Counted from the stretch's first letter, positions 1-31,170 are shown. The stretch: 32,000 bases of DNA from Staphylothermus hellenicus DSM 12710 (GCF_000092465.1 NC_014205.1:150001-182000); one strand, 5' to 3'. The notes: a model not told the origin generated them from the sequence alone. Numbers and translations are program-made.

Positions 1-160
1 CACCGTAGACAAGTTTCCTAAGCCTTGCATATGATGTAACTCCACTTTGTACAGCCTTCTCTATACAGAAATTAACCATATCCCTAAAATCCACCAAAAG
101 CCTCCTAATCTCCCCACTCTTCTCATACTTGAAGGGTACAGTTAGCGTTACCTCAACCAT
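1..160 (-). CDS. IS200/IS605-type OrfB (TnpB-like) protein, N-terminal fragment; gene runs off the left edge
   Basis: Not in the ORF track because it is edge-truncated. Manual minus-strand translation from the ATG at 160-158 gives MVEVTLTVPFKYEKSGEIRRLLVDFRDMVNFCIEKAVQSGVTSYARLRKLVYG..., open to position 1. This resembles N-termini of archaeal IS605 OrfB proteins as I remember them; only 53 codons are visible. Confidence 0.45.
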   Translation of the reverse strand, partial: MVEVTLTVPFKYEKSGEIRRLLVDFRDMVNFCIEKAVQSGVTSYARLRKLVYG

Positions 161-247
161 ATCGATCCTCTCAGTTTTGGCTAGCCATAATAGAGTACTG
201 CCCTAAAGAGTATATAAACACTTCTTGGAAACAAAAGTATATAAATG

Positions 248-643
248 TTACGAAAGCAACACTATATGTTTCTGCCCCTTCTTGTGAATGATTGTTCTCG
301 TTTTCTCCAATACGTGTCTAGTAAGTTCATTATAATTGTAAACAACGAATAAAGGGGTATCGGAGAGTACGCATCCAGTAATTAGTATTGGTTCAGCATT
401 TTCAACGATCATGCATGATGGTGATTTTCCATAGTATTTCAATGCATAAATAATGTATGAGCCAACAGTTGATCCCCTGCTTCCACGGAAAACTAGGGCT
501 TTTCCAGTAATAGATATGTTTTCAGGTCTCACTATGCCCTTAACAGGATCTACCTCGCCGAAGAAGCTAATGCTTCTATTGATAACTACTGGTTCTCCTT
601 CACAGTCGCCGTCAACAACTATTTTTATGGGAAAAGTCTTCAA
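248..643 (-). CDS. Aconitase-X swivel-domain protein (DUF126); likely small subunit of phosphomevalonate dehydratase
   Basis: 131-aa ORF. It has the GKALVFRGSRGSTVGSYIIYALKYYGKSPSCMIVENAEPILITGCVL pattern typical of the AcnX small (swivel) subunit. Its start overlaps the stop of the DUF521-like gene by 4 nt (640-643). Confidence 0.8.
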   Translation of the reverse strand: MKTFPIKIVVDGDCEGEPVVINRSISFFGEVDPVKGIVRPENISITGKALVFRGSRGSTVGSYIIYALKYYGKSPSCMIVENAEPILITGCVLSDTPLFVVYNYNELTRHVLEKTRTIIHKKGQKHIVLLS

Positions 644-4993: not shown

Positions 4994-5143
4994 ATCCTCT
5001 GTAAAACCCCGTCCTACTTAATCATTGTTATACAGAGTATTCTACACTATGCTTATGGTCCTGAAGATATATTTATTATAAATTATTTTATTTTTTCTGA
5101 ATAAATACGCATTATTTATTGGATTATTGAGAGGTTTGCTTAT

Positions 5144-5788
5144 TTGTCGAGGAAAACAATGGTAACGGGTAATCCTGGTCTGGACAGGGTTATTCGTGGT
5201 TCTAATTCTGTCTTGTTTTTTGGCGGGGCAGGTTCTGGTAAAACTACTCTTTTATTAACTATTGCTTCTAATATATGCATAGATAAAAATGATCCATGCC
5301 TATATATTAGTACTGAGGAAACCCTTCACTATGAACGAGTAGCTAGGTCTCCGCAAAAATTTGCTAATGTATTTTTTACTGAGATATATGATTTTGATGA
5401 ATTATTTGATTTCATCGTTTTCAAACTACCCATCTTAGGGTTTAGGAGGGTATTTATTGATAGTATTAATTCTCTCTACCGTGTAATAGCTTCTGAGGAG
5501 GAATCTATTACTAGGTATGGATTATTGCTGGGTATGCTTTGGAAAAACACTGTTGATCGTGGAGGGTTCTTATTTGGTTCAGCACAGGTTAGAATGGGTT
5601 ATGAAGATGAGGAATACGAGGTTGTTGCTAGTGGTATGAATATATTGGATTACTGGTTTAAAACAATAATTTATCTTGGATGGGAGGATGCTAAGAGGAT
5701 GGCTCGTATAGTTAAGCCAGTAGAATACTCTGATGAATCATATTATTTTTTGATAAGTGGTGAGGGTATTGAGTGGGTTCATGATTAG
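5144..5788 (+). CDS. RecA-superfamily ATPase (RadB/KaiC-like paralogue)
   Basis: 214-aa ORF. TGNPGLDRVIRG...LFFGGAGSGKTTLLLTIA is a Walker A motif in RecA/RadB-like context. The track start at 5144 is TTG; the ATG at 5159 (MVTGNPGLD) is an equally plausible start. Confidence 0.7.
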   Translation: MSRKTMVTGNPGLDRVIRGSNSVLFFGGAGSGKTTLLLTIASNICIDKNDPCLYISTEETLHYERVARSPQKFANVFFTEIYDFDELFDFIVFKLPILGFRRVFIDSINSLYRVIASEEESITRYGLLLGMLWKNTVDRGGFLFGSAQVRMGYEDEEYEVVASGMNILDYWFKTIIYLGWEDAKRMARIVKPVEYSDESYYFLISGEGIEWVHD

Positions 5789-6299
5789 TCCAGAATATTA
5801 TTTTATATATTGGTTTCTAAAATACTATCTACCACCAATGATAGCTAATGCATCCCCTGTTCTAGTCAAGGGTACTCATAGAATAGATTTCTCCCATATA
5901 TTCATAGATGGTAAGCCTTTATTCGGTAAAAACAAGACGTGGGAAGGCTTCTATATTGGTGTTCTAATGGGTTTCCTCGCATCTATTAGTATAAGTATTA
6001 TTCTGTGTGAGGAAGAATATGTATTAATAGGTTTGGGTAGCTCAGTATCTGCTTTAATAGGTGATTTACTAGGCTCATTTATTAAGAGGAGAATAAATAT
6101 TGCTAGTGGAGAACCCTTACCCATAATTGATCAATTAGATTTTGCATTAATGTCTACTTTATACTATTATCTCCTAGGCATGGAAGAATTCGTATCCCAC
6201 CCATTATACATGCTGTATTCCCTCACAATCATTTTAGCACTACATATTATAACCAATAACATAGCATATTATCTGGGAGTAAAAGATAAGAGATGGTAG
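5757..6299 (+). CDS. carS: CDP-archaeol synthase (DUF46 family)
   Basis: A multi-TM protein with GKNKTWEGFYIGV and GDLLGSFIKRR motifs characteristic of CarS. The track start at 5757 is GTG. The ATG at 5781 overlaps the upstream stop (ATGATTAG) and may be the true start. Confidence 0.8.
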   Translation: MVRVLSGFMISPEYYFIYWFLKYYLPPMIANASPVLVKGTHRIDFSHIFIDGKPLFGKNKTWEGFYIGVLMGFLASISISIILCEEEYVLIGLGSSVSALIGDLLGSFIKRRINIASGEPLPIIDQLDFALMSTLYYYLLGMEEFVSHPLYMLYSLTIILALHIITNNIAYYLGVKDKRW

Positions 6300-6387
6300 A
6301 AAACCTTATAACATAGATAATTAGGTTTTTATTAGGGTAAATACATGGTTCTAGACATAGACGCAGCAGGGGATAGGTGAGTATTGT

Positions 6388-6675
6388 ATGAGAATACCAA
6401 AGGTTATAGTAACGTATTGTCCAAGATGTAAAACACATACACCACATACAGTGACTATTTATAAGCATGGTAAACGCAGATCTCTTGCTGAGGGTGAGCG
6501 TAGATACGCTGCTAAAAAGAAAGGCTATGGTTCAAAACGTAAATCTGAACAGAAAAGATTCGCTAAAGTTACAAAAAAGGTTGTTTTAAAACTTAAATGT
6601 AGACAATGCGGATATATAATTCACCGCCGCGGAATACGTATGAAGAAATACGAGTTAGTAGAGGTGACAAGGTAA
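6388..6675 (+). CDS. rpl44e: 50S ribosomal protein L44e (eL42)
   Basis: [22 protein letters not shown]...KLKCRQCGY: a zinc-ribbon CxxC...CxxC basic protein of the right length. GGTGA lies upstream of the ATG. Confidence 0.95.
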
Positions 6676-9996: not shown

Positions 9997-10944
9997 GTGA
10001 TCTTGGAAATGGTGTGTGGAATGCTTATTATTAAAGGTACTGGTTTTAATGTGGGTATTGTGTCGGAACAGTCTTTCCTCAATAATTTGTTTTATTCTCT
10101 AAACAACTTGTTTCCTAAGAGATATATTCCGAAATATACGGTGTCAACTAGTAGTGGAGAGGGAGGAATAGATGCTTTTATATCGTGGATTAGTGGTGAA
10201 GGTTTTTCTGTTGAGAAATATGTGTTGAGAGATAATGGTGTTGACGAATACTTTGTTAGATCAAATCTGCCTAGACCCTATATTAATGAGTCCCCATATT
10301 TTTTCCTATTACAAGTAATTGCTAGGAGTATTGTGAAAAACAATTACTTGGTCTTAACGGATAGTATTAGTTTTGTATTTAATGATGAAACTTATTTGTT
10401 GGCTGGTTACCCACATACGGGTAAGAGTACATTATTAGCATTAGCCTTAATGAATGATGCGATACCGTTATCGACTGAGAACACTGTTGTATCTGTTAGT
10501 GAGGATGGTGTGAGAATTGTTGGTGGAACAAGTGTTTTAGTATATGATCCCCGGATTGAGGATATTTATGGTGTTAAGCTAGAATATGATTCGATGACTC
10601 GTCACGGATACAGGATTGTTGATTTGGAGAAGCATTATCCGTCGAGAAATAATTATTATGGAGAACTGGTTGATGCAATATATGTTCTCCACTCATCTTT
10701 TAAGTCGGTAGGGGTTGATGCTGAGCCTGTTAAGGGACGTAAAATCCTTAAGACACTCTGGTATTTCGCATCTGCATTGTTGAGGGGGCTGGATTATTAT
10801 CAGCCTCACCCGCTTGTATTGTCTACGAGGATTATAGATGATAAGGTAGAATACATGCTTAGACTAGTTAGTGAGAAGTATAGTGGTAGATTCTATGAAG
10901 TATATGGGCGCCACGACCATATATTCAAATACATAGTTGGTTAA
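9997..10944 (+). CDS. Uncharacterised P-loop protein (Walker A context reminiscent of the HprK C-terminal domain)
   Basis: 315-aa ORF with a GTG start. LLAGYPHTGKSTLLALALMNDAIPLSTENTVV resembles the G-x-S/T-GKS...AL-L...D-D/E-x-V arrangement of HprK-like kinases. This is weak and by eye only. Confidence 0.55.
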   Translation: MILEMVCGMLIIKGTGFNVGIVSEQSFLNNLFYSLNNLFPKRYIPKYTVSTSSGEGGIDAFISWISGEGFSVEKYVLRDNGVDEYFVRSNLPRPYINESPYFFLLQVIARSIVKNNYLVLTDSISFVFNDETYLLAGYPHTGKSTLLALALMNDAIPLSTENTVVSVSEDGVRIVGGTSVLVYDPRIEDIYGVKLEYDSMTRHGYRIVDLEKHYPSRNNYYGELVDAIYVLHSSFKSVGVDAEPVKGRKILKTLWYFASALLRGLDYYQPHPLVLSTRIIDDKVEYMLRLVSEKYSGRFYEVYGRHDHIFKYIVG

Positions 10945-10952
10945 AGAATTAT

Positions 10953-11258
10953 TTGGGAGAGAACATGGGTTTAGGCTTGCTGCTCATTCTTTTAGGAGCT
11001 ATTCTCATCGTTATAGAGATAGCTACGCCTGGCTTCTTCATAGCTGTTCCAGGAACTATTCTTATCATTTATGGTGTATTACTCGCGTTGTTTCCAGAGC
11101 TTATCAATATCCCATATGTTCCCTGGATATTGTTCTTCCTATCTTTCCCCATAGGCTACATAACATATTTGATTTATAGGAAACTATCTCCTCCATCACC
11201 ACCTGTTACCGAGAGCTATGAGGGGTTGGTTAGTAAGGTAGGGGGTAGAAACATATAG
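10953..11258 (+). CDS. NfeD-like membrane protein, apparently C-terminally truncated (OB-fold domain missing)
   Basis: It has three TM helices, then the linker SPPSPPVTESYEGLVSKVGGRNI*. Short NfeD proteins normally continue from the GLVGKxG motif into an OB-fold domine of about 60 aa; here the frame stops about 5 codons in. It sits upstream of a stomatin fragment, the canonical NfeD partner. Confidence 0.6.
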   Translation: MGENMGLGLLLILLGAILIVIEIATPGFFIAVPGTILIIYGVLLALFPELINIPYVPWILFFLSFPIGYITYLIYRKLSPPSPPVTESYEGLVSKVGGRNI

Positions 11259-11300
11259 TGTTGCTTTCTTAATGTTTATATGTTGGTGTTTCAGGGTGGA

Positions 11301-11308
11301 TTTATATA
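11301..11308 (+). promoter_or_regulatory. Candidate archaeal TATA box (TTTATATA) upstream of the G+C-rich element
   Basis: TTTATATA lies in an AT-rich spacer. A start about 25 nt downstream would fall near 11331 (TTGATGATGAGG...). Confidence 0.3.
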
Positions 11309-11344
11309 TGTGTTTGTTTAATTGTTGTGTTTGATGATGAGGTT

Positions 11345-11520
11345 TGGATCCCGCGCCCAATATGTAGGGGTTAGGCTAAGCCTGAATGGGCGCGGGGATT
11401 AGAAGTATCCGAAGATGTGGGGAGCAATCCGTTCCCCCCGAAAGCCCCTCGATGAAGATGGGAGGGGGGAAGGCTAGCCGTAGCATTTGTTGCATTCGTT
11501 GCTTTTGCTACGGCTAACCA
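11345..11520 (+). ncRNA. Unclassified G+C-rich structured RNA candidate
   Basis: A sharp G+C-rich block sits in an AT-rich genome. It contains three perfect stems:
- 11350-11359 CCCGCGCCCA pairs with 11387-11396 TGGGCGCGGG.
- 11445-11450 CCCCTC pairs with 11462-11467 GAGGGG, around a GATGAAGATGG loop.
- 11475-11485 TAGCCGTAGCA pairs with 11506-11516 TGCTACGGCTA.
UGAUGA-type motifs occur at 11332-11340 and 11451-11455. No ATG/GTG/TTG-initiated ORF explains the block. The strand is assumed from the upstream TATA. Confidence 0.4.
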
Positions 11521-12175
11521 GAACGGTGTTCGCGTAGAAACAGTTGAGATCAGGGAGGTTGAGCCTAGTCCGCGTGTTAAGAAAGCGATGGAGGAGCAAA
11601 CTAGTGCTGAGCGTGAGCGTAGAGCAGCTATTCTAAGAGCTGATGGTGAGAAGAGGGTTGCAGTACTTAAGGCTGAGGGTGAGAAAACTGCTCAAATACT
11701 ACGCTCTGAAGGCGAGCGTATGGCTAAGATTCTGAGAGCTGAGGGTGAGAGATTGGCAACTATTCTTAGAGCACAAGGTGAAGCACAAAGACTTAGAATA
11801 CTGAGTCTTGGAGCAGCCAGTCTACACAGCCACGCATTAACAGTTATGAGCCTAGAAACATTGAAAGCAATGGCTGATGGTAAAGCAACAAAGATCATAG
11901 TTCCATTCGAAGTATCCAGACTAGTAGAAGCATTATCAGCATATATAGGGAAAGGAGTTAGAGAACCGCAAATACCACAAGTAGACATAGAAAAACTAGT
12001 AAAACTAATAGGGGAACCAGAGAAAATACTGGGAAAAATACCTAGCTACGAAGAATTATCAGTAGAGGTGAAGAAAGCAATAGAAGAAGCAAAAAAGAAA
12101 AAACTAACACCAACAGAACTATCAAGAGAAGAAAAAGAACTACTAGAAACACTGGAAAAAGAAGAGAAAACATAA
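11456..12175 (+). pseudogene. Stomatin/SPFH (band-7) protein, C-terminal part only; SPFH core missing
   Basis: Track ORF 11588..12175 begins ...EEQTSAERERRAAILRADGEKRVAVLKAEGEK..., the coiled-coil tail of archaeal stomatins. The same frame is open upstream to 11456 (..NGVRVETVEIREVEPSPRVKKAM..), which is the end of the SPFH domain. That stretch has no in-frame ATG/GTG/TTG and a TGA at 11453-11455. About 150 aa of N-terminal TM plus SPFH domain are absent. Confidence 0.6.
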
Positions 12176-12208
12176 ACCCTCCAACACAAATAAGTATAAA
12201 CAGGAAAA

Positions 12209-12359
<151 letters not shown>

Positions 12360-12430: not shown

Positions 12431-12506
12431 GGGCCCGTAGCCTAGCCCGGATCAGGGCGCCGGCCTTCGGAGCCGGAGATCCCGGGTTCGAATCCCGGCG
12501 GGCCCG
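12431..12506 (+). tRNA. tRNA-Arg (anticodon UCG)
   Basis: Acceptor stem GGGCCCG/CGGGCCC. Anticodon stem CCGGC/GCCGG with loop CTTCGGA. T-arm CCGGGTTCGAATCCCGG. No encoded CCA. Confidence 0.9.
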
Positions 12507-13059
12507 CTAACTCCATTAGCTTGGTAGAATAGCTCGAAATACTCTGCCATTAGTTCTCGTTCTTGTGAAGCCTTGAAAACTCGCTCCTGATCTCAAAAAT
12601 GAGTATTTATAGTGAGTTCTGATTGGTATGGGAAAATCAATGTTCATCTCCAAACTAGTTAGGCTCAGTATTCTAGGCCTTGTAAAGGATAAGATTGGAT
12701 ACACGAGTACATGTATGGTTTTAGATACTGCAGAGAAGCATGCTAAGTTAGTTCTAAAGGAGAAGCAATTAATGATACTATTAACAGGTATCAATAAAGC
12801 CTGGTTCTAGAAAGGAATAGAGCTTCTAGTAAGAGTGTGAAGGGGGACTCCTGTTGCAGTGGAGGTCATAATACGTGGTCCTGCAAGAATATTCTCTTAA
12901 AGATCTTGGGTGTTGTTGCAAAGATTCTGAGTTATCTCTATAGGTGCAAGGTTATTATCTCCATTAGATTAAGAGAGGTTGGAGCGTTAATTTTAAATAA
13001 GGGTATTAAAATAAAAATAACAAATTTTAATATACACAATAAAGTATCGGTGTTTCCGA

Positions 13060-17627: not shown

Positions 17628-17652
17628 CTTTCAATTCTTTCTATGTTGTTAC
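17628..17652 (-). CRISPR. Orphan single CRISPR repeat (GTAACAACATAGAAAGAATTGAAAG on the minus strand)
   Basis: It is identical to the second repeat of the array at 21112-21136. It ends in ATTGAAAG, the crenarchaeal crRNA 5'-handle sequence. A leader-like sequence immediately precedes it on the minus strand. No further repeat is seen leftward. Confidence 0.7.
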
Positions 17653-17810
17653 TTTGGTTCGAATAAATTGCTACATTTTATTTTTTCTTCGAATCAGATA
17701 TATATGTTTTTCCATAATTGATCCATGCTTGATCCTGTTCGAACAATTATCTATAGACTTAATAGTATCTCTGACCCCCTTGAAGGGTTTGTGAAAAATA
17801 TTCGATTAGG
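17653..17810 (-). promoter_or_regulatory. CRISPR leader (left copy, minus-strand orientation)
   Basis: About 150 nt align by eye at roughly 80 percent identity to the reverse complement of 20885-21045. It abuts the orphan repeat, is AT-rich, and contains three TTCGAA palindromes. Confidence 0.6.
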
Positions 17811-20884: not shown

Positions 20885-21045
20885 TAGTCGAACAATTTAC
20901 ATTATACAAACCCGTCAAGGGGTCAAAGACACTATTTATCTTATAGTGAGCTGTTCGAACACGATCAAGCAAGGGATCAATTATAGAAAAGCATATATAT
21001 CGGGTTCGAAGAAAAATATAAATGTAACAATATATTCGAGGCAAT
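20885..21045 (+). promoter_or_regulatory. CRISPR leader (right copy, plus-strand orientation)
   Basis: Homologous to the reverse complement of 17653-17810. It directly precedes the first repeat at 21046 and contains TTCGAA at three positions plus variants. Confidence 0.6.
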
Positions 21046-21136
21046 GTAACAACCTAAAAAGAATTGAAAGCCTCTAAATCCATAAGCTTCCTGCAGCGAA
21101 CCTCCTCTTCAGTAACAACATAGAAAGAATTGAAAG
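21046..21136 (+). CRISPR. Vestigial CRISPR array: 2 repeats (25 nt) and 1 spacer (41 nt)
   Basis: Repeat 1, 21046-21070: GTAACAACCTAAAAAGAATTGAAAG. Spacer, 21071-21111: CCTCTAAATCCATAAGCTTCCTGCAGCGAACCTCCTCTTCA. Repeat 2, 21112-21136: GTAACAACATAGAAAGAATTGAAAG. The two repeats differ at 2 positions. Confidence 0.8.
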
Positions 21137-21258: not shown

Positions 21259-22602
21259 TTAAGCCTGCTTTATTTTTTCAATAATATTTTCTTCGGCTAT
21301 GTTTATGTGTTCATTGATGAGTTGGTCTAGTTCTTTTATTTTATTGATTTTTCTAAAGTTTAACGGTATTATTGCGACGTATTTGTTTTTGTCGTTTATA
21401 GGGATTGGTTTGTGTTGGTTGTTTGTTTTTTGTGTGTAGGTTGCGTTGTAGATTATTGCTCCTTTATCTACGTTGTACTCGTTCATGTATCCTAGTACTA
21501 TTCTTAGTTCTCTATAAATATCTTCTAAACTTCGTCTCTGCTTAGCATCCATAACAAATACTATTTCTTCACCGTCTCCCTTGTTAATTGTTATTGTTAT
21601 ATCTGGTCTACCAGCTTCAGGTCCCCCAATTACTTGTTTGTTTCTAGTAAGCCAGCTTTTATCGCTGAAGCCTTTGCTGTGATAGATCCTATAACTAATA
21701 TTTTCCCCGTTCTCCTCAACATTTATTTCTATAAATTCTCCCTTATGATCAACAATTATTTCCTTCACCCCTATCCGTTCTAGTTTTGATAGTAGAGCGT
21801 ATGTGGTTAGATAATGAGTGTAGATCTCGAATATTCTCTCAAGCTCTACTCCTACAATGGATCCTGTATGCTCAGGTTTTCCATGAACAGCGATCTCTTC
21901 CCCGATATTCATGATTGTTTGGAGATATTGTTTAAAACTTTTAGCGAGGAAATAATATCCATAGTTTCCGCGTTCTAGAACTGTGTCACATAGTTGTAGG
22001 AGTGAATCATAATCTTCTCTCTCAACTATACCTGCTAGTTCGGTTATCCAAGATACGCTACTATATGTTTCTCTTAGATCATCAAGTATTAAACCTATAA
22101 TCTTATTTAATAAATAGTTTTCAGCAGATACATTTTCTTCCAAATCCTCAATTATCTCCTTGATTTCCAAAGCAATATTCGCTAATAACAATGTCTCGGG
22201 TGAATCATATAATCTTTTATTAATACTTGATACTATTAAGAGTCTGCCACTACCGTATAGTGCTATTGTTTTTGGAAAATCTATTCTCCCCCTGGCAACA
22301 ATATCTATTCGATCCTCATAACTGGTTTCATAGATCAACTCTAACGGTATTCTTTTCAGAGTTTCTATAACATCTCTTATAGCTAGAACACGTGCAGTGA
22401 GCAAACCAGCCTTATAAGCATCCCTTAAAACACGGTCCTTTACTTCTCCAAAAAACTTTATAGGGTAACCCTTTACATAGCTGTAGAAGAGAAATAATCC
22501 TATAAGCCTAACAGTAACCATATACATGGATTCTAGGAGATCTTGATCTTTAGAACTTTGAGACAATATTACCGACCATTTCAATAAGTCCTTTATAATC
22601 AT
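21259..22602 (-). CDS. McrC-like PD-(D/E)xK nuclease subunit
   Basis: 447 aa, last gene of the operon and directly after the McrB-like gene. The C-terminal GRPDITITINKGDGEEIVFVMDAKQR fits a PD...(D/E)xK active site in the position seen in McrC. The track start overlaps the upstream gene by 53 nt; the internal Met at about 22527 (MYMVTV) is an alternative. Confidence 0.65.
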   Translation of the reverse strand: MIIKDLLKWSVILSQSSKDQDLLESMYMVTVRLIGLFLFYSYVKGYPIKFFGEVKDRVLRDAYKAGLLTARVLAIRDVIETLKRIPLELIYETSYEDRIDIVARGRIDFPKTIALYGSGRLLIVSSINKRLYDSPETLLLANIALEIKEIIEDLEENVSAENYLLNKIIGLILDDLRETYSSVSWITELAGIVEREDYDSLLQLCDTVLERGNYGYYFLAKSFKQYLQTIMNIGEEIAVHGKPEHTGSIVGVELERIFEIYTHYLTTYALLSKLERIGVKEIIVDHKGEFIEINVEENGENISYRIYHSKGFSDKSWLTRNKQVIGGPEAGRPDITITINKGDGEEIVFVMDAKQRRSLEDIYRELRIVLGYMNEYNVDKGAIIYNATYTQKTNNQHKPIPINDKNKYVAIIPLNFRKINKIKELDQLINEHINIAEENIIEKIKQA

Positions 22603-24268
22603 TTAGTTCTCCTGATTCCATAATCTTCTCTAATGCATCAATGTATTTCTTTGGAAGCATTATCTTAGATATCTCGGGATCAAGAATTGAAGCTAGAGAA
22701 CTAGATAATGCTTCATCAATAACATTCTTGATACTCTTCGAAGGATTCATGCTAATAAGATTATATGCATCAATAGCAGATTCAATTATATAAGATATTC
22801 CTAGAGGGAAGTCATTATTAATAAATATTCTATAGATTCTCGTTAACTCCTCAGCAACATCGCTAAGCCTCTGAGTATCAACATTACTGATCTCTTTAAG
22901 TACGTTGCTAGCTTTTCTCGAGACTATCTTCTTTAAAACTTCTTCATTAGCATTAGAGATTTTCTGCGGGAATACTCTTACAATATGGAATCTTCTAAGT
23001 AATGCATAACCTAGTGTGAACAAATGGGTTATATCCCACGTGTTAATTGTTGCTACTATTCTAAATCCCCAAGGCAACGTATTGTTTGCTTTAACATGTT
23101 TTAGTATTGTCTCAGCAGCATCATCTCTATCATCATAGTTTTTAATCTCATCGATAAGTGACTGGGGCAACTTCCATTGGCTAGGATCTATGCCTGGGTA
23201 TATTGTGAAGAATTCTGCTAAAACCTTATCAGCTTCGCAACGATTCAGTTCATCGATAAGCAATAATACACCTTTAAACCCCTTATTCTCACCAGACTTC
23301 TTATCCTCATCAGCTCTACTAATGTATTCAATATGTTTTGCAAGAGCTGATAGAAATACACCACTCTTCCACTTGAATCCTTTAGAAGAAATAATCGGTC
23401 CACCTATGAAATCATAGCGGGTCCACGTAGAAGAAGCAGTAGTGCTCACCAATTCATAATTGAGATATTTAGCTAGAAGCTCTGCTAAATACGATTTACC
23501 AGTACCCGGCGGCCCAACTAATAATAAGTGCTTACCCTTATTATATCCAGCAACAAGATCATCAAGGATCTCTTCAGAATAAAAACCATCATTATCGATC
23601 ACATGATTTTTGAACCCTTCATAATCAATAAGTATTGGATGCGAAGGTTTTGGCTTATGATATTCTTCTTTCATCCCCATAGAATGTATCTTCATGTACT
23701 CACTCTCCCTAAGGGATGCTAGGTACCAGCCCTGTTTTATGATATTCTCACTAATATTCTTGGTCTCTCCATAATTTATAGGATCTTCATATTCTTGGAA
23801 GTTAGATAACCTTAGTAAAAAGAAAGAAATACCGCTTATATTTCCTATTCTTTTTCTTATTTTTTCTTCTGCCCTTTCTAAATATTGATTTAAATCTATA
23901 TTTTTCTGAGTAGAGCTGTTTTTCTGGAGAAGACGCGTAAGCTCATTTCTGAGTTCATACCAGGTATATTCTTTAATGTTCTTATTATCTTCTTCTCGAA
24001 GAATCGATCTACCTATAAAAGCTTTTTTGACTTCTCCTTTCTTACTGTGAATATATATAGCTCTTGACCCCACATAATGTATGATTGTTAATTCACTGAA
24101 TTGTTTAAGGGATTTTATAATGGCATTATATTCTGCTGCATGACGACCCTTTATCGGCCCCCATAAAGCCACTCCTATATGAGCAGGAATAGGCAAACTC
24201 CAATTGTTTATTTCAACCCAGTATTTTGAAGGTTCTAATCTTTTATAGCTATACAAAATATTTTTCAC
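22550..24268 (-). CDS. McrB-like AAA+ GTPase/ATPase with a divergent N-terminal domain
   Basis: 572 aa. It has Walker A LLLVGPPGTGKSYLAELLA, Walker B plus the McrB-type NR motif VLLLIDELNRCEADKVLAEFF, then FRIVATINTWD and GYALLRRF. The first roughly 200 aa are unrelated to the ATPase core. Confidence 0.8.
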   Translation of the reverse strand: MKNILYSYKRLEPSKYWVEINNWSLPIPAHIGVALWGPIKGRHAAEYNAIIKSLKQFSELTIIHYVGSRAIYIHSKKGEVKKAFIGRSILREEDNKNIKEYTWYELRNELTRLLQKNSSTQKNIDLNQYLERAEEKIRKRIGNISGISFFLLRLSNFQEYEDPINYGETKNISENIIKQGWYLASLRESEYMKIHSMGMKEEYHKPKPSHPILIDYEGFKNHVIDNDGFYSEEILDDLVAGYNKGKHLLLVGPPGTGKSYLAELLAKYLNYELVSTTASSTWTRYDFIGGPIISSKGFKWKSGVFLSALAKHIEYISRADEDKKSGENKGFKGVLLLIDELNRCEADKVLAEFFTIYPGIDPSQWKLPQSLIDEIKNYDDRDDAAETILKHVKANNTLPWGFRIVATINTWDITHLFTLGYALLRRFHIVRVFPQKISNANEEVLKKIVSRKASNVLKEISNVDTQRLSDVAEELTRIYRIFINNDFPLGISYIIESAIDAYNLISMNPSKSIKNVIDEALSSSLASILDPEISKIMLPKKYIDALEKIMESGELNDYKGLIEMVGNIVSKF

Positions 24269-24711
24269 CTCTTATCTATTTCTAAAAGTATTCTTAAAGC
24301 CCTAGCTGGTCTAAGTATTCCCGGATATTTTCTTTCTCTAAATCTCTCAACAATTATTCCCGCCCAATACTTTAGATCTAGATATGTAAGTGTTTTAACC
24401 GCTTCCATTGCTTGGAGTTTTTTCTTATAAGTTCTTAAATTGCTAGTGATAACGGCATAGATTAATACTTTTGCATAAGTTTCCCAATTATCCGTTGTAA
24501 AAGTCATAATTTTTCTGCCGCCTTTCTTTTTGAAACCGCTTCTAAGAGCATATTGTATTAGTAATTGTGGATTACATCTAATTTTTACTTCTAATACTCC
24601 TCTACTCCTAGTTGTGCCAGCGTAGAATCTTGAAATTCCCATGTTGTTTCTAGAATAGATTACTAGGTAATATAGAGGCTTAGCTTCATCATCAATAGTA
24701 GAGCTCATCAC
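24265..24711 (-). CDS. Small operon protein, unknown function (occupies the slot of the small DUF3780-type partner in DUF1156/DUF499 clusters)
   Basis: 148-aa ORF with 4-nt overlaps to both neighbours (24708-24711 and 24265-24268), which implies translational coupling. It is basic, and I cannot place its family from sequence alone. Confidence 0.55.
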   Translation of the reverse strand: MMSSTIDDEAKPLYYLVIYSRNNMGISRFYAGTTRSRGVLEVKIRCNPQLLIQYALRSGFKKKGGRKIMTFTTDNWETYAKVLIYAVITSNLRTYKKKLQAMEAVKTLTYLDLKYWAGIIVERFRERKYPGILRPARALRILLEIDKR

Positions 24712-27700
24712 TTCCTCCTCACAATTGTAACTATTATATCGGCGTATCTAATGTATTTGTCAAGTATTCTTTTAAGAGTTGAATTGATAGTTATCTCTTT
24801 TGGAAATTCTGCTTCGAAGCTTCCCTCGACAAATATATTTGAACCCATAGACTCTAGTAGTTCGCTAACTACGTCATAGACTATTGCTGGATCAGCTTGT
24901 TTAAATAAAACATCGCTCACTCCATACTCTCGGCTTTTCACGTGGAGCTCCATTTTATTGACAATGAACACCTTCTCATCCGGTTTACTTAGTAATTCAG
25001 TTAATTTGTTAATGAGCTCCAGTATATCTCTATAATTCTTATTGCTAATTGAGCTCTTAATACTGATTAAAACATCTCCTTCTTCAAGAACCCCTGGTTC
25101 ATGAATATCAATAACACTAGTCTTAGGCTTAACAGTGATTATTTCCTCGTATGAGTTACCATTATCATCGATCGCCCTAATCGTTATCAATGTTTGTTGC
25201 CTGATCCTTGAACCATTTATTTTAATCCACGTCTTAAACGGTACTTGTCCTTCAAGAACTCCATGATCAGTTACTGCATCACTAGACACGGTGATTTTAA
25301 CATTGCCACCATAGTCTCCTAGAGGTTGAGCCTCAATTCTCACATCTACGCTTTCATCAGGTGAGATCTCAATATATGATGGCTCAACTACTAGGTTTAT
25401 CCCTGTTTTCAGAATCTTTTCCTCCTTAACAATGAAGCCGTCTCTAAGAATTATTTCCCAGTCTGGAAACTTTTCGATATCCTTAATTGAATACCTCTTA
25501 TTCCTGTATACAACGTAGTAGTTTAACTTGAGAATACCATTATCTATTCTTGTTCCGTCGTTTTCTTCTATATCGCTTTTGATCTCCTCTAGTATCTCCT
25601 TTAGCGCGTCTCGCCAATGCATTATAATGAAGCTTTCTTGTATTCTTGTTGGTTCTTCTCCTCTGTCCTTATCAGTAAATGATGTAATATCGTTTGGTGA
25701 ATATATGCGTTTAAAGTATCTTCTATTGAACTCGTCTATTAAGGCGATTTCTAGGTTTAATACACCCTCCTTGATGGCATCTTTAATTCTATCTTCTCTT
25801 ACCATAGGTAGTTCGGGCCTTGTCTTAAAGACATTGATAACGTCTCCAACACTGATCTTTCTCCCAGGTTTTATTTCAATTTCAACCTTGCTTAAATAAG
25901 TCTTTAATGATTCAAAATTTAATGATCTAACTATTTTACCAATGCTTGGAGAGCTTAGTGCTGAGACAACTTTTTCACTAATTGATTTATCAGATGATGT
26001 AGCATATGTTTTCTCAACAATTCTTCTAGAATCTTTAACTGCTGGATAATATATTTGATCAAAGAAGTTAAGAATATTTGTTAATAAGATGTTTTCGATC
26101 ATTCTTTTCTGGTACGATGCAATACTTCTCTCAATATCCTTGATCTCCTTGGCATAACCACTATACAGCTCATTTATTCTATCCATAATTATTTCTGCCG
26201 CTCTCAGAAGTGCTTGATACTCGAGAAGGGATTCGAGTTTATCCTTTGTCGAAATAGTTACTGCTACAACGGTATTAGCGTGTGTTCTCTCAATTCCTCT
26301 AAACTTATAGATTAGCTCTTCGATCTCCTTTGGCTTATTATATAGTATAGCAACCAGCTTATAGGAACTGCTATCAGGAACCTCAGCCTCCGACGCGTAT
26401 CTATAAACCGATATATTCTTTGCATCGAATATTTCAGCATATCTAAATCGTTCCATAGAATAGACACTAGCTTCTCGGGCTCTGCCTACTTCGATTAAAC
26501 GTGAAGTCATTAATTTATGTATATTCTCCATAAGCAAGTTCTCGACATGGCTCCTGTTTTCTTCTAAAATCTTTTTAGCTTCTCTTCTAATCCATTCCTT
26601 TATAGATGCAATTCTAGAATACCAGTATCTATCGGTTGATTCATCATAGTGTAGGAAGACAGTATAGTTACTGATCTTGATCTCTGATAATGCATCTACT
26701 ATATCTACCGGCTTATACCTATTAGATTCGAAGAATTTTGGTTCATAAACCATTTGAACGATTTCTTTGCTTGTTGGAAACACTGGTTCTGCTTTAAGAC
26801 TATCATAGGGATAAGTTGATAAGAATATTGTTCTTAGAATTATCTTTATTAGGTTCTTCCTTTCTGATTCTTTAGGGATTTTGTTATCCAGTGCAACTAT
26901 TTCGTCAGCATATATTCTCTGGTAATCACTATAATCTCCCATGAAGAATAGGCCTTCAACACCGAGCTCGACAGGGTCAATATGCCACGGCATAATCAGT
27001 ACTGGATCCTCGTTGCTCCTCAATAGTTTCCTTAACAGTAGCCTAGATATCCTCATTAAGAACCTGGTCCTATTACCAGTAACTCTTTCAGCGATTTCCC
27101 TGAGCACACTGATATAGGAGGGGTGGAAGGGATAGGTCTTTTTAATGTCTTCTCTGAGCTTACTAGTATCTCCAAATACCTCCTTGAACTCGTTATAAGT
27201 ACTTATAAGTTTACGGATCTCATTTTTTGCCTCATCAACTCTGACCTCACTGAAAAGCCTCTTCTTTACAACATTGAAGAGTTCAGTACTCCTAGATATT
27301 GGGGCATATACATTGCCTGCTACACGTAATAGAGCATCCAATAGATCTCTTACAAATTCGCTTATCCTCTTATACCTTGGCTGAGGCTCTATTCCTCCAG
27401 GCTTCTTTTCCGCAGCAATAGTAATTACTAATACATTGTTTGTTGACTCAACTGCTTGCGCTAGTCTATCAAAGAACCTAACTACCTCGCTCACATATCC
27501 CTCCTTATTCTTATACTTTGATGAAAGAATAGAATCTATATAGTCAAGGATCTCGTCTACAAGAATAACAACTTTGCGGCCTTGCAAAAGTTTTTTGAGA
27601 ACACTTTGATCAGGGCATGTCTCGTTTTTATCATCCCTCTCCACAAGCTCGTATCTCTTCAATCTATCTGCTAGATAGCCCCATAAAGTCTTTATTTTAC

Positions 27701-28127
27701 GCGATCCCCCCTCTAATGGCTTTATCGGGCTCGGAGCTAATCTAGAATCCTTACCATATATAACTACTACTTCAACACCCTTAACATTCCTATATAACTT
27801 ATAGACTTCATCTGAGAGGAGATACGTGTAGCTTGGATTTAAAACAGCGTGATAAATAGTTAGTAATGTATGTGTCTTACCTCCGCCGAAAAAAGCTATT
27901 ATTGGATAAACCTTACGTCCCTTCCCCTCAGTTAGAGTATTCCCTATCTCCGATAGAATAGTCTTCATACTATCCGTAAGATATGTTCTTTCAAAAAACT
28001 CTCTGGGATCCATATATATTCTAGGAGCCGTACCATAAACAACCTCATAGATCTCAGGCGCTAGTTTCTCGTCAAAACTAGGATCTAGAACATCCTCCCT
28101 TACAGAAACATGTTGTTTAAAACCCAA
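24708..28127 (-). CDS. Large P-loop ATPase, DUF499/COG1483-like
   Basis: 1139 aa. The N-terminal ...YGTAPRIYMDPREFFERTYLTDSMKTIL...VYPIIAFFGGGKTHTLLTIYHAV matches the DUF499 N-terminal and Walker A signature as I recall it. Walker B-like VVILVDEILDY follows. Confidence 0.75.
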   Translation of the reverse strand: MGFKQHVSVREDVLDPSFDEKLAPEIYEVVYGTAPRIYMDPREFFERTYLTDSMKTILSEIGNTLTEGKGRKVYPIIAFFGGGKTHTLLTIYHAVLNPSYTYLLSDEVYKLYRNVKGVEVVVIYGKDSRLAPSPIKPLEGGSRKIKTLWGYLADRLKRYELVERDDKNETCPDQSVLKKLLQGRKVVILVDEILDYIDSILSSKYKNKEGYVSEVVRFFDRLAQAVESTNNVLVITIAAEKKPGGIEPQPRYKRISEFVRDLLDALLRVAGNVYAPISRSTELFNVVKKRLFSEVRVDEAKNEIRKLISTYNEFKEVFGDTSKLREDIKKTYPFHPSYISVLREIAERVTGNRTRFLMRISRLLLRKLLRSNEDPVLIMPWHIDPVELGVEGLFFMGDYSDYQRIYADEIVALDNKIPKESERKNLIKIILRTIFLSTYPYDSLKAEPVFPTSKEIVQMVYEPKFFESNRYKPVDIVDALSEIKISNYTVFLHYDESTDRYWYSRIASIKEWIRREAKKILEENRSHVENLLMENIHKLMTSRLIEVGRAREASVYSMERFRYAEIFDAKNISVYRYASEAEVPDSSSYKLVAILYNKPKEIEELIYKFRGIERTHANTVVAVTISTKDKLESLLEYQALLRAAEIIMDRINELYSGYAKEIKDIERSIASYQKRMIENILLTNILNFFDQIYYPAVKDSRRIVEKTYATSSDKSISEKVVSALSSPSIGKIVRSLNFESLKTYLSKVEIEIKPGRKISVGDVINVFKTRPELPMVREDRIKDAIKEGVLNLEIALIDEFNRRYFKRIYSPNDITSFTDKDRGEEPTRIQESFIIMHWRDALKEILEEIKSDIEENDGTRIDNGILKLNYYVVYRNKRYSIKDIEKFPDWEIILRDGFIVKEEKILKTGINLVVEPSYIEISPDESVDVRIEAQPLGDYGGNVKITVSSDAVTDHGVLEGQVPFKTWIKINGSRIRQQTLITIRAIDDNGNSYEEIITVKPKTSVIDIHEPGVLEEGDVLISIKSSISNKNYRDILELINKLTELLSKPDEKVFIVNKMELHVKSREYGVSDVLFKQADPAIVYDVVSELLESMGSNIFVEGSFEAEFPKEITINSTLKRILDKYIRYADIIVTIVRRK

Positions 28128-28158
28128 GGCTTTTATCCCCCTATCATATATATTTTAT

Positions 28159-31100
28159 TTACTTTATGTAGTTATCAATCGTTCTATAACTAGGCTTAGC
28201 CGGGCCACATTTAACCCCCATATATTCAAGTATTCTCATAGAAAGTTGCTGCTCTGGATCGCCTTCGAAATAGCTGCAGATAACATATGCTATACCCTTA
28301 GCTTCATTAATAAAGCTAGGCCCACCTGGTTGTTCTTGAAGCTTCGAAACAAGTTTCTCAAATGTGCTTTTATCATATTTAGAAGCATAGTATTCGAGAA
28401 CGTGAAGTGCATCAATACTGTTAGTTATCCTAGGCTTATCCGGATTAATTCCTCTACGCTTCTCCAAGAAAATCCTCAACTTACTGGGTTCAATACTTAG
28501 TGGCGAATTCAATACATACTCTTTTCTACTAGTAGATGCCGCTCGCTTCTCAATCACTATCCTCTTCTTAACCATATCACCCACGTTTATACCTGAAGCA
28601 ATAGATAATATAGTTATACTGCTAGCATCCAGTTTCTTCTCCTTAGAAAGAAGTTTACGAGCAGTCTCAGGATCTCTTAAGAACACTAGCTTGAATAAGA
28701 GATAGAATAGAGCTTCTGGAGAACTAACATTGAACGTAGACATACCAACCAAGTAATCTATTAATCCGCGAGCAGCGGCAGGAAACACTATTTCACGTAT
28801 AATTCTGCCAACAGACTCAATACCTCCCTCGTTATCCTTAATCCCCAAGAAGCTACTAAGCTTATCCCTCTTCTCAGGAAACACTATTTTATCATAGCTT
28901 GTTGCAACTTCTAAAACCCTGCCCATCACGCCTATGAAAGCATCTAATCCTCTATGTTGTTTCCAAACATCCCCTGCGTAGCTTTTAGCAGCTTCCACCG
29001 CTTCGCGATATACATCGCTGAAAACACCTACTCGATCACTATGAGATCTTTTTCTCCAAACAATTACCAAGCTAGTATCTAAGCTACGCTTACCCCTCTT
29101 AACAATAGATTGTTTACTCTCTGTATCAAGAGGCCATGTAGCAGTTATCTTAAAGCCTCCTCGAGCCCATCCAGCCCACAATAGATCTCTCCAAGCATCA
29201 GGATCAGTATGATTATAATATGTAACAAGTAATCCATCATCCTTCAAGTGCTCCCTCATAGCTATGAAAGAATCACCGAGAAGCTCTAAGTAGCGTTCAT
29301 AAGCATATTTTTTAGCATCCTGATTATTTCCAACATAATCCCTGTAGCGTCCAGGATTAAAACTAGCCTCACGCTTAGCAAAAGATTCCCACTGAGTGCT
29401 AATAGGCTTCCAAACAGCACCAACACGCCTAAAAAACAGGTCCTGGTGAAACCTCGGAGCAAGCCTACCATTCTCAACATCACTCAAAGCACGCTTCAAC
29501 CAAATGAAATAAAAATCACTAAGCTCAGCATAAGGAACATCATCACGATAAGGAGGATCAGTAACGATCAAATCAAACTTCTCATCAGAGGCTACATTGT
29601 TAAACACAGCAGCATCATCCAGCAAAACGTCAACCCTATACTTATTACTAGGAATAACTGAAACGAGGTACAACAAGCTCCTAATAAGAGCATTTAATGA
29701 CCTACTCCAAGATCCAGCAAGGTTGTTAATGGGTCTAGCATCCACCCAATTCCAACTCATAGCTATACCTCTTACCGACATGCTCGATGCGATCTTGAAC
29801 CATGTACTATCCCATATATTAACTATAGAATTCAAATATACGAGCTTACATAACGCTATTGCTAAGTATGTTGTTACTGCTTCTGCGTACCTGAATGCCT
29901 CTTCCCTGGTCCAGCCTTTTTTTAGCTTTTCTTCCTCTATTTTCTTGCCAACTTCTCGTATTAGCTTGACTATTTTGATTAAGGTTAGGAGTTGTCGTGG
30001 ATTAAATAGCTTATAGAATTTATCAATACCCCATACAATTGTATGATAGGTGGATGAACAGTATGGCTCTATTGGCTCAGTTGGTAGGTCTGGGTCTTTC
30101 CATATTTGTTTTAGTTTTTCTAGTGCTTTCCATAGTTTTTCTTGGTCTTCTTGTGTTGCCGGTGCGAATTCTATTTCTTTACCCCTAGTTTTTACCTTGA
30201 CTAGTATTCTGGGTCTTGCAGGTGCTTTTTTGAGTTCTTCTAGGCTTGTTTCTCCGGACAAGTATTTTTCGAGGAGTGTGTTCCATTGTTTTAGAGCATA
30301 TTTGGGGTAGAATATGACTTTTTTTCTGAGTGATGAGGGTAGGTTTGATTTTTCGGGATAGTGTTGTCCGGTTTCTGGGTTTATGTATCCTATTTTGTTT
30401 TTGCAGTATAGGCATGTTGCTTTCTCTCTTCTCGCATCAATGTTTTTCTCTGGGACTTCGAGCTCTATGGTTTGTTTTCCTCTAGGTATGATTATTTTGT
30501 TTGATTTAATCTTATCTTTGTCAAGGAAGGGGATTTTGTATTCTTTATTTATATCTACTACCTCAATATCTACTCTATCGTTTCTTTTCACTGGCTTCAT
30601 ATAGGCTATTCTAGTATACTTATTATTTTTCTTCACTCTTGCCAGCCAATAGTTTCCTATTAGTGGTGTATATCTTTTACACCGGGGGCATTGAATCTCC
30701 CATGTTCCTATGTATATTGCTGTATCCTCGTCGTATAGTTCTTTTAGATCCTGATCATTTTTTAATTGTTCAATAATCCATTTACCATATTTTTCCACAT
30801 CTTTAACTAAATTTTTCCATTTAGGATCGCTAACTGCTTTTAGAGGATATTCTAGGACTGCTTTCAAGAATACGGCTGCTGTTGGTAATAGTTCTACTGC
30901 TATTACTTTTCCCACGCCTAGTCTTAGTGCTTCTAGGGGTATTGAGCCGAAGCCAGCGAATGGATCTAGCAGACTTGTTTCTTTAAACAATTTCTTTAAA
31001 CCAGCTAGTTCTCCTTGAAAAACCGGGTTAAACCTGTGCGGTGTTTTCTTGTCTAGTCTTAGAATGTATTGTTTAAATGCTTCTGGATCGATCTTGTCTG

Positions 31101-31170
31101 CTGGTATTATTGATCCCGCTATTACTGCTCTTGCTGTTATTAATGGTTTACGTGTCCACCAGAAAACCAT
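28159..31170 (-). CDS. Zn-ribbon-containing N6-adenine-type DNA methyltransferase, DUF1156/COG1743-like
   Basis: 1003 aa from the track ATG.
- DUF1156-type N-terminus: FWWTRKPLITARAVI.
- SAM motif I: LLDPFAGFGSIPLEALRLG.
- Zn ribbon: CPRC...CLYC.
- Motif IV: LIVTDPPYRDDVPY.
The frame stays open and family-like for 35 more codons upstream (to 31275) but has no canonical start there. Confidence 0.85.
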   Translation of the reverse strand: MVFWWTRKPLITARAVIAGSIIPADKIDPEAFKQYILRLDKKTPHRFNPVFQGELAGLKKLFKETSLLDPFAGFGSIPLEALRLGVGKVIAVELLPTAAVFLKAVLEYPLKAVSDPKWKNLVKDVEKYGKWIIEQLKNDQDLKELYDEDTAIYIGTWEIQCPRCKRYTPLIGNYWLARVKKNNKYTRIAYMKPVKRNDRVDIEVVDINKEYKIPFLDKDKIKSNKIIIPRGKQTIELEVPEKNIDARREKATCLYCKNKIGYINPETGQHYPEKSNLPSSLRKKVIFYPKYALKQWNTLLEKYLSGETSLEELKKAPARPRILVKVKTRGKEIEFAPATQEDQEKLWKALEKLKQIWKDPDLPTEPIEPYCSSTYHTIVWGIDKFYKLFNPRQLLTLIKIVKLIREVGKKIEEEKLKKGWTREEAFRYAEAVTTYLAIALCKLVYLNSIVNIWDSTWFKIASSMSVRGIAMSWNWVDARPINNLAGSWSRSLNALIRSLLYLVSVIPSNKYRVDVLLDDAAVFNNVASDEKFDLIVTDPPYRDDVPYAELSDFYFIWLKRALSDVENGRLAPRFHQDLFFRRVGAVWKPISTQWESFAKREASFNPGRYRDYVGNNQDAKKYAYERYLELLGDSFIAMREHLKDDGLLVTYYNHTDPDAWRDLLWAGWARGGFKITATWPLDTESKQSIVKRGKRSLDTSLVIVWRKRSHSDRVGVFSDVYREAVEAAKSYAGDVWKQHRGLDAFIGVMGRVLEVATSYDKIVFPEKRDKLSSFLGIKDNEGGIESVGRIIREIVFPAAARGLIDYLVGMSTFNVSSPEALFYLLFKLVFLRDPETARKLLSKEKKLDASSITILSIASGINVGDMVKKRIVIEKRAASTSRKEYVLNSPLSIEPSKLRIFLEKRRGINPDKPRITNSIDALHVLEYYASKYDKSTFEKLVSKLQEQPGGPSFINEAKGIAYVICSYFEGDPEQQLSMRILEYMGVKCGPAKPSYRTIDNYIK

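Follow-up and report, generated by a model that had tools for sequence, protein, structure and literature searches.

In the stretch of DNA analysed here, a 32,000-nt window of the Staphylothermus hellenicus DSM 12710 genome (NC_014205.1:150001-182000; positions are counted from its first letter), the middle of an nfeD-stomatin operon is replaced by a short, G+C-rich and hairpin-dense element. We propose, with a probability of about 0.8, that positions 11245-11526 are a protein-less derivative of an IS607-family insertion sequence (IS), about 282 nt long, from which tnpA and tnpB were internally deleted and whose G+C-rich block is the scaffold end of an omega-RNA, the guide RNA of TnpB. Alignments with relatives fix the boundaries of the element and its homology to IS607-type elements, and they reveal both covarying helices and recurring compact derivatives. 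The block is a real structured-RNA module of an already known kind and opens no new category of system.

These results account for a local rise in G+C and for the disrupted operon with no need of a new class of RNA, and they place a transposon remnant and two pseudogenes at exact coordinates. They also bring to light a large IS607-type family, so far without a name, in metagenomes of hot environments; it is characterized by an omega-RNA-like scaffold with four covarying helices and by protein-less derivatives that keep precisely this scaffold.

Foreign DNA in place of the operon middle

A preceding sequence-only reading had placed a G+C-rich element at 11259-11587, between an NfeD open reading frame (ORF) ending in ..GGRNI* (stop at 11258) and a stomatin frame with no start codon before 11588. 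Both truncations were borne out: the ORF at 10953-11258 matches in Pfam the NfeD membrane domain alone (PF24961), and Band_7 homology of the stomatin remnant covers only profile positions 129-176 of 176, the final quarter of the SPFH/Band_7 domain. With the stomatin fragment as query, intact 369-aa orthologues of up to 95% identity were retrieved. The contig that carries the closest of them (L003) shares its gene order with the window, namely SDR (short-chain dehydrogenase/reductase), a 310-aa protein, NfeD (152 aa) and stomatin (369 aa), and is collinear with it by blastn in two blocks, window 10803-11239 with L003 3022-3459 and window 11525-12354 with L003 4151-4979. About 285 nt of the window (11240-11526) thus stand for 691 nt of L003. 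By tblastn, residues 1-93 of the L003 NfeD map to window 10965-11243, and the final codons of the window ORF are inserted DNA. The DNA lost relative to L003 comprises NfeD residues 94-152, the spacer and stomatin residues 1-153, in agreement with the earlier estimate that the C-terminal part of NfeD and about 150 aa of stomatin were missing; tblastn found none of the lost parts elsewhere in the window. The insert is missing from the orthologous loci of four relatives (L003-L006). Comparison with the intact operon therefore fixes the replacement junctions: foreign, hairpin-dense, G+C-rich DNA does occupy the operon middle, as had been proposed, but its true span is 11240/11245-11526.

In one of these relatives (L006, positions 5056-6456; GCA_053993435.1) the nfeD-stomatin pair is damaged as well, with a frameshift in nfeD and a stomatin gene in pieces that lacks its first ~46 residues. 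No element is inserted there, and the damage may reflect an error of the metagenome-assembled genome or independent operon decay.

Ends and relatives assign the element to the IS607 family

A relaxed (degenerate) pattern derived from the G+C block was used to scan metagenomes and identified 114 loci. The same pattern had no match in viral contigs, and neither a 21-mer of the left end (LE) nor a strict core pattern had a match in a collection of genome contigs that holds neither the source genome nor close copies. The 3' module of the window element aligns end to end with the family loci and scores 112.9 bits against a family model in which the window sequence is itself included. In one relative (L007) the LE is 80% identical to 11243-11278 and the 3' region 80.6% identical to 11414-11485; similarity at both the LE and the right end (RE) extends to L011, L043, L061, L117, L118 and L123. 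In the complete copies of the subfamily nearest the window, all metagenomic and about 1.85 kb long, LE and core are 1724-1752 nt apart. Complete copies encode a 204-aa protein with HTH_17/MerR and Resolvase domains together with a TnpB of 398-436 aa (PF07282/PF01385), these Pfam domains being seen in L117 and L061. The window element thus shares its ends with elements that encode a serine-recombinase TnpA, with an N-terminal helix-turn-helix (HTH) and a resolvase domain, and TnpB, as IS607 elements do. The suspicion, voiced from the sequence, that the segment might be a mobile element or a miniature inverted-repeat transposable element (MITE) was well founded, in that both ends match IS607-type elements.

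The termini lead to the same assignment. LE flanks, immediately before G(C/T)AGAAAC, read GGG in 11 of 14 cases and [T/A]GG in the other 3, and the right ends read ..(C/G)A(G/C)AACGG in all long-type copies, the sequences diverging directly afterwards. A GG terminus, a (G)GG target and the lack of both terminal inverted repeats and target-site duplication fit the published rule that IS607 inserts at (G)GG, carries GG at its termini and duplicates no target (PMC6188088). They fit as well the TGGG that serves as both target and transposon-adjacent motif (TAM) of a characterized IS607 TnpA/TnpB pair (10.1101/2023.11.20.567912). When a TAM of 4-5 nt was sought upstream of the LE, nothing was conserved beyond (G)GG.

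Compared with known members of the family (IS607, IS1535, ISC1926, CboIStron), the elements described here are alike in that full relatives encode a Resolvase+HTH TnpA followed by TnpB and in that they have no terminal inverted repeats or target duplication, a GG right terminus, (G)GG targets and a structured RNA overlapping the right end. The family to which the window element belongs is one of hyperthermophilic Thermoproteota. The window copy differs in that both genes are gone, only ~282 nt are left, and ~690 nt of host DNA have been lost where a plain insertion would be expected.

One subfamily carries tnpB only (P0122-P0172; L002, L007, L008, L009). All its database relatives are short (84-229 aa) and correspond to C-terminal halves with PF07282, the N-terminal part being called as a separate ORF with PF27234 (MJ0013); this pattern represents either widespread pseudogenization or a naturally split gene.

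Anatomy of the ~282-nt element

The anatomy of the element (Table 1) was read from its alignment with full-length family copies. The AT-rich stretch, in which TTTATATA had correctly been noticed at 11301-08, corresponds to the transposon left end and contains TATA boxes that appear promoter-like. Further on, ATGATGAGGTTTGGA aligns with the start of the serine-recombinase ORF, as does GTGGCGATGAGGTTGTAT in L017 and L061, and 11347-11526 align with the tnpB 3' end and right end of full copies. The element would accordingly have retained an LE with TATA-like boxes and the five first tnpA codons and then, across an internal deletion, the last ~180 nt. Stem 1 is homologous to the part of tnpB that codes for a zinc finger (SLCPxCG..NGHR); in the window the Cys codons are gone and the pairing is retained. 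A second gap lies between stem 1 and stem A, where 62-87 nt are absent relative to tnpB-bearing copies.

Since only five tnpA codons and frame-broken tnpB 3' remnants are left in the element, which thus has no tnpA or tnpB of its own, the element is non-autonomous. With ~282 nt, no ORF and both ends of the parent IS, it has the hallmarks of a miniature element. Neither the comparison with L003 nor the alignment of short relatives revealed the inverted repeats or target duplication of classical MITEs; as this is what is expected for IS607, we call the element MITE-like only.

A motif GTTGC(A/T)TT occurs in the LE (11261-11268) and in tandem in the loop of stem C (11490-11497, 11499-11506), where it underlies a VAFVAFVAF translation. 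Family LEs also hold two GTTGC(A/G)TT copies, and other family copies showed no such repeat in the loop of stem C. The motif could be a subterminal TnpA-binding repeat.

Table 1. Features of the interrupted operon, the inserted element and a second family copy (window coordinates).
Feature	Position	Strand	Remarks
Truncated nfeD	10953..11244	+	Residues 1-93 of 152 kept; ORF enters element, stop at 11258
G-run, left junction	11241..11245	+	(G)GG target/crossover dinucleotide before LE G(T/C)AGAAAC
Left end (LE)	11245..11310	+	TATA-like boxes 11275-11283 and 11301-11308; similar to LEs of L007, L011, L017, L025, L117
tnpA start remnant ATGATGAGGTTTGGA	11335..11349	+	MMRFG, five codons; then internal deletion junction
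Stem 1 hairpin	11347..11399	+	Arms 11347-58 / 11388-99
Stem A, GUGGGGAGC..GUUCCCCCC	11417..11439	+	Arms 11417-25 / 11431-39; RNAalifold consensus, covariance-model alignment
Invariant linker GAAAG	11440-44	+	Directly after stem A
Stem B	11445..11469	+	Arms 11445-50 / 11464-69; K-turn/K-loop-like motif
Stem C, long terminal hairpin	11472..11519	+	Arms 11472-84 / 11507-19; 13 bp in window
Right-end terminus AGAACGG	11520..11526	+	Transposon boundary GG at 11525-26
Predicted omega-RNA guide segment, TGTTCGCGTAGAAACAGTTG	11527..11546	+	Stomatin flank; suggested by known architecture (PMC8612924, PMC10055086)
Stomatin remnant	11527..12175	+	Residues 154-369 of 369 vs L003 (blastn, tblastn); first in-frame start 11588
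Second family copy	1..278	-	LE 278-205, then tnpB N-terminus 160-1 running off window

The G+C-rich block folds and covaries as an RNA

G+C content reaches 0.55-0.59 across 11350-11550 against ~0.38 in the surroundings, and perfect stems are formed by CCCGCGCCCA/TGGGCGCGGG (11350-59/11387-96), CCCCUC/GGGGGG (11445-50/11464-69) and GGCUAGCCGUAGC/GCUACGGCUAACC (11472-84/11507-19), so that the composition and stems described from the sequence alone are confirmed. The 221-nt stretch folds at -87.9 kcal/mol (z = -4.1), lower than 200 of 200 shuffles; its reverse strand likewise folds well (z = -5.6). Rfam returned nothing for the region at gathering thresholds, and permissive thresholds gave only chance-level fragments with E above 3. 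Box C/D and H/ACA architectures were represented by partial matches alone (E >= 6.5, 10-13 bits against gathering scores of 44-49). The earlier failure to match the block to RNase P, SRP (signal recognition particle), C/D or H/ACA RNAs was therefore justified.

Comparison of homologues, which had been suggested as a check, revealed compensatory changes in four helices among 26-34 relatives. RNAalifold applied to 26 distinct 3' modules yielded stems A, B and C, with 94.2% of cells paired. Double changes occur in 13 of 26 pairs, against 6.9 +/- 1.3 in shuffled alignments (0 of 500 reach the observed value) and 3-6 when the partners were slid by 1-3 columns. Stem A (helix 1) is 98% paired, and compensatory changes affect 4 of 6 pairs in stem B and 9 of 12 in stem C (26 relatives). 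In stem 1, for which 34 distinct copies were compared, the 10 inner pairs are nearly always formed, a percentage that is inflated because the copies were chosen for at least 6 contiguous pairs; double changes are found in 8 of 12 pairs. Up to four pair types are seen at a position of this stem, one column pair being CG in 12 copies, GC in 12, AU in 7, GU in 3 and unpaired in none, and the covariation score is 0.41 against 0.20 in shuffled alignments (0 of 500), despite the position of the stem within coding sequence.

Two observations bear on the molecule that is conserved. Protein frames over stems A and B differ among family members (P0145 reads ..RMRGASVPPESLSMK.. and P0123 ..RMRGAPLPQKALYEP..), and the window resembles each of them, in two different frames, which points to conservation at the level of nucleic acid. 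G-U pairs occur in the tnpB sense strand only. IS607 elements transpose as double-stranded DNA (dsDNA) and do not need end hairpins. On these two grounds, the G-U pairs and the mode of transposition, we read the helices as RNA.

The module has the sequence-level attributes of an omega-RNA: it lies at the tnpB 3' end, its scaffold ends at the right boundary, its secondary structure is supported by covariation, and the flanks differ directly past AACGG. In described systems the scaffold runs from the tnpB 3' end to the right boundary and the guide is taken from the flank (PMC8612924, PMC10055086; for IS607, 10.1101/2023.11.20.567912). Archaeal tnpB genes have long been known to give rise to sense RNAs at their 3' ends (PMC4615843), and an archaeal TnpB is an RNA-guided nuclease (PMC10640517). 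The omega-RNAs of ISDra2 and SisTnpB1 (PMC8612924, PMC10097598, PMC10640517) share with the window module the extent from tnpB 3' end to RE, a multi-stem scaffold and a flank-derived guide. Their primary sequence and helix layout are unrelated to those of the window RNA, which has a K-turn-like (kink-turn-like) motif, and their TAMs are TTGAT or TTTAA whereas GGG would be the TAM here. The view that the block bears the marks of a structured RNA is thus upheld by fold and covariation; it is not an independent cellular gene but the tnpB-3'/right-end module of an IS607 element.

Short relatives retain the covarying helices

The family includes further short elements without proteins, of 301 nt (L017), 239 nt (L028), 271 nt (L053) and 273 nt (L089), and another (L060) that ends at a contig end. 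L028, L053, L060 and L089 have one layout, an LE with a TTTATAAA box followed by stem 1 and stems A-C, as in the window element, and the gap between stem 1 and the core measures 9-14 nt in these four against 62-133 nt in tnpB-bearing copies. Because they sit in four different flanks, the short form has moved. A TATA box is conserved in the short relatives, and a TATA-like box likewise lies ~26 nt upstream of the scaffold in the window. The segments retained in the miniatures are precisely the covarying helices, as would be expected if the RNA, beyond the ends alone, were under selection.

Miniature omega-RNA carriers are of a known kind, as palindrome-associated transposable element (PATE)-like elements often encode omega-RNAs that need TnpB supplied in trans by other copies (Meers et al. 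2023, PMC10055086). The PATE- or MITE-like elements of the IS200/IS605 family described in that study resemble the window element in being protein-less, in keeping both ends and the scaffold, and in that they would need TnpA and TnpB in trans. They differ in parentage, the parent of the window element being IS607 (serine recombinase, dsDNA circle) and not IS605 (Y1 transposase, single-stranded DNA (ssDNA)). The window element, moreover, is archaeal, lacks palindromic end hairpins for a transposase and is known in its exact form from one copy.

A conserved K-turn-like motif

Stem B conforms to the pattern of a K-turn, with a C-stem CCCCUC/GGGGGG, a bulge GAU (11451-53), GA (11454-55), a loop and GA (11462-63). 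As a pattern match only, CCCUC-GAU-GA-AGAUGG-GA-GGGGG corresponds to a stem, a 3-nt bulge and tandem sheared G-A pairs. The arrangement C-stem-NNN-GA..GA-C-stem, in which the bulge is AAU or GAU, is found by the same kind of match in at least 76 of 100 distinct family modules and spans three subfamilies, with either a loop or an extended non-canonical (NC) stem. Of the two sites formerly proposed as K-turns, GAUGA at 11451-55 thus lies within a family-conserved K-turn-like motif, whereas UGAUGA at 11331-36 belongs to the tnpA start remnant and is no C box.

For small RNAs (sRNAs) from the 3' ends of orphan OrfB genes of Pyrococcus abyssi, binding of L7Ae by way of K-turns or K-loops has been described (Phok et al. 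2011, PMC3124441), and transposase-linked sRNAs of S. solfataricus are cited there as binding L7Ae too (Zago et al. 2005, as cited in PMC3124441). Like the RNA proposed for the window module, the P. abyssi RNAs sRk48, sRk52, sRkB and sRkC (PMC3124441), the S. solfataricus sRNAs and the sense overlapping transcripts (sotRNAs) of H. salinarum (PMC4615843) originate from the sense strand of orphan OrfB/TnpB 3' ends. They also arise from ORF-less intergenic repeats, are G+C-rich, contain a K-turn or K-loop and bind L7Ae in vitro. They come from elements of Euryarchaeota and Sulfolobales and are likened to the window RNA by description, Rfam giving no match. By analogy with them, stem B of the window may bind L7Ae. 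The conserved motif ties the older observations on L7Ae-binding, OrfB-derived sRNAs to the TnpB guide-RNA picture.

A wider scheme can be sketched, which we regard as speculative and rather unlikely in its entirety. IS607 elements of hyperthermophilic archaea would have spawned stand-alone guide-RNA genes, made up of an LE, a TATA box and an omega-RNA scaffold with a conserved K-turn; L7Ae, a ribosomal protein, would be an integral part of the archaeal TnpB ribonucleoprotein (RNP); and the serine TnpA or the guided nuclease would cause host deletions between GG sites.

Proposed activity and alternative explanations

By analogy with the systems cited above, transcription from the LE TATA box would start near 11330 and produce an RNA with its scaffold at 11347-11526 and, as guide, the adjoining stomatin sequence from 11527. 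This RNA could serve a TnpB supplied in trans by another copy, for example that at window 1-278. It would then target the empty, GGG-flanked site, with TGTTCGCGTAGAAACAG as the expected target and GGG as the presumed TAM, and would favour retention of the element.

Several points weigh against this proposal. Transcription is predicted from TATA-like boxes alone; the window holds no complete tnpB or tnpA, so that the partner in trans is assumed; and the TAM is itself deduced. A stretch of 62-87 nt that separates stem 1 from stem A in every tnpB-bearing copy is missing, and the RNA may therefore not be competent; this stretch is also absent from four other short relatives. The exact short element was not found a second time in the window or in the searched collections, which do not hold the source genome. 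Finally, the compensatory changes could predate the deletion. These points overlap with what speaks for an inert, decaying relic of the same IS607 deletion, with no functional RNA and hairpins that are merely inherited: a single copy was observed, both tnpA and tnpB have been lost, the 62-87-nt segment of the full-length 3' region is absent, the RNA of the element is known from sequence alone, and many metagenomic family members are degenerate. We nevertheless consider such a relic somewhat unlikely, given that all four helices are intact despite the destruction of coding capacity, stems 1 and C even containing compensated pairs specific to the window, that other short elements at different sites show the same compact layout, and that a TATA-like box precedes the scaffold at the same place as in the short relatives.

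Explanations that dispense with IS607 fare far worse. An independent cellular gene for a structured RNA, such as an L7Ae-binding sRNA with no tie to a transposon, would account for a G+C spike in an AT-rich genome, a stable fold and a K-turn-like motif. It is, however, hardly tenable, since the block is collinear with the tnpB 3' end and right end of IS607-type elements at more than 100 loci, is missing at the orthologous locus of four relatives, is flanked by a matching transposon left end and has no match in Rfam. Our initial reading, an element of the IS200/IS605 type, draws on the link to tnpB, on the presence of a subterminal hairpin and on the fact that PATEs have been described for that family (PMC10055086); the same ends would then derive from a PATE mobilized by a Y1 transposase, and the hairpins would be recognition structures in ssDNA with no RNA involved. 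We abandoned it as very improbable once full copies with the same ends proved to encode a serine recombinase with an N-terminal HTH and no Y1 transposase; moreover, the ends are GG and the targets (G)GG, and the covarying helices reach ~180 nt inward, well past an end hairpin. The IS607 derivative with an omega-RNA scaffold is the reading we prefer.

Loss of ~690 nt of host DNA

Both ends of the element are intact, and the two breakpoints in L003 are GG sites, AAGGTTGG/AGTT in nfeD and AAGTGGGG/TGTT in stomatin (the slash marks the breakpoint), with nothing duplicated. The ancestral (G)GG sites at its two ends are distinct, the left one belonging to nfeD and the right one to stomatin, and the loss of the intervening DNA is therefore associated with the element. 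Three routes are compatible with the data: an exchange by the serine recombinase (TnpA) of one end of the element with another GG site in cis, homologous recombination involving two copies, one at the nfeD and one at the stomatin site, or a microhomology deletion at G-runs.

Alternatively, two real copies, one in nfeD and one in stomatin, might have been collapsed during assembly and the DNA between them dropped. Two independent insertions would indeed look identical to what is seen, both junctions being precise element ends at GG sites, and an independent short-read assembly (L001) breaks at the LE of the second family copy, which shows that the repeat troubles assemblers. On the other side, the missing 690 nt are nowhere else in the window, there is no direct sign of a second copy nearby, and biological recombination of two copies would yield the same sequence; we judge an artefact improbable. 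Look-ups of window ORFs by exact protein recovered no independent assembly of the element junction.

The two ancestral breakpoints (L003 3452-3482 and 4143-4173; window 11243-11256 and 11527-11548) are identical at 20 of 31 positions (TAAGGTTGG/AGTTGTTGTTGAAACTGTTAAG and TAAGTGGGG/TGTTCGCGTAGAAACAGTTGAG). Each consists of GG, 7 nt and GT(T/A)GAAAC, and the LE of the element begins GG/GTAGAAAC. AGAAAC downstream of GG was considered as a general target feature and dismissed, other family insertion flanks being devoid of it. The likeness of the breakpoints may be due to chance or to recognition of pseudo-ends.

A second family copy in the window

A repeat search found window 11242-11292 to be 84% complementary to 228-278, and blastn aligned 40 nt at 90% identity (278-239, minus strand). 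This second LE replaces the last codons of an AcnX small-subunit gene (248-643), ..GQKHIVLLS* being read from the LE. Downstream of it, on the minus strand, come a TATA-like box and then, with no tnpA, an ORF reading MVEVTLTVPFKYEKSGEIRRLL.. that runs off the window edge. The 53-aa ORF had a single match in the protein search, P0001 (63% identity), which in contig L002 adjoins, on its upstream side, an ORF with PF07282 (Cas12f1-like TNB, i.e. TnpB). The 3' end of the L002 tnpB resembles the G+C block of the window (GGATGAGGGGAGC..CCCAGAAAGCC..TCGATGAAG). An independent Logan contig with an identical AcnX protein (L001) ends 2 nt past the AcnX stop codon, at the LE of the second copy. Further copies of the segment had been thought worth seeking: the LE does match the second copy at 278-205, but a search of the window with a covariance model gave no additional right-end module.

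Other features of the window

Directly downstream of the stomatin remnant, and adjoining tRNA-Arg (12431-12507), Rfam calls a tRNA over 148 nt at 12209-12356 (plus strand, 37 bits). ARAGORN misses it, and it presumably represents a tRNA gene interrupted by a long intron.

No cas genes were found in the window, in which two minimal CRISPR-like arrays lie in inverted orientation at 17628-17778 and 20919-21136. The first has a single repeat (17628-52) and the second two repeats with one 41-nt spacer (21046-21136; Rfam CRISPR-DR27). Each is followed by a leader-like stretch of ~125 nt, the two stretches being 86% identical, and the arrays enclose three ORFs of 302 aa, 151 aa (a DUF6884 protein) and 311 aa. 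Further on, positions 21259-31170 of the minus strand encode a DUF1156-type methyltransferase (1003 aa), a DUF499 protein (1139 aa), a 148-aa protein, an AAA_5 ATPase (572 aa) and a 447-aa protein, a cluster that looks like a defence-island-type system and that, together with the transposon copies, suggests a variable region of the genome.

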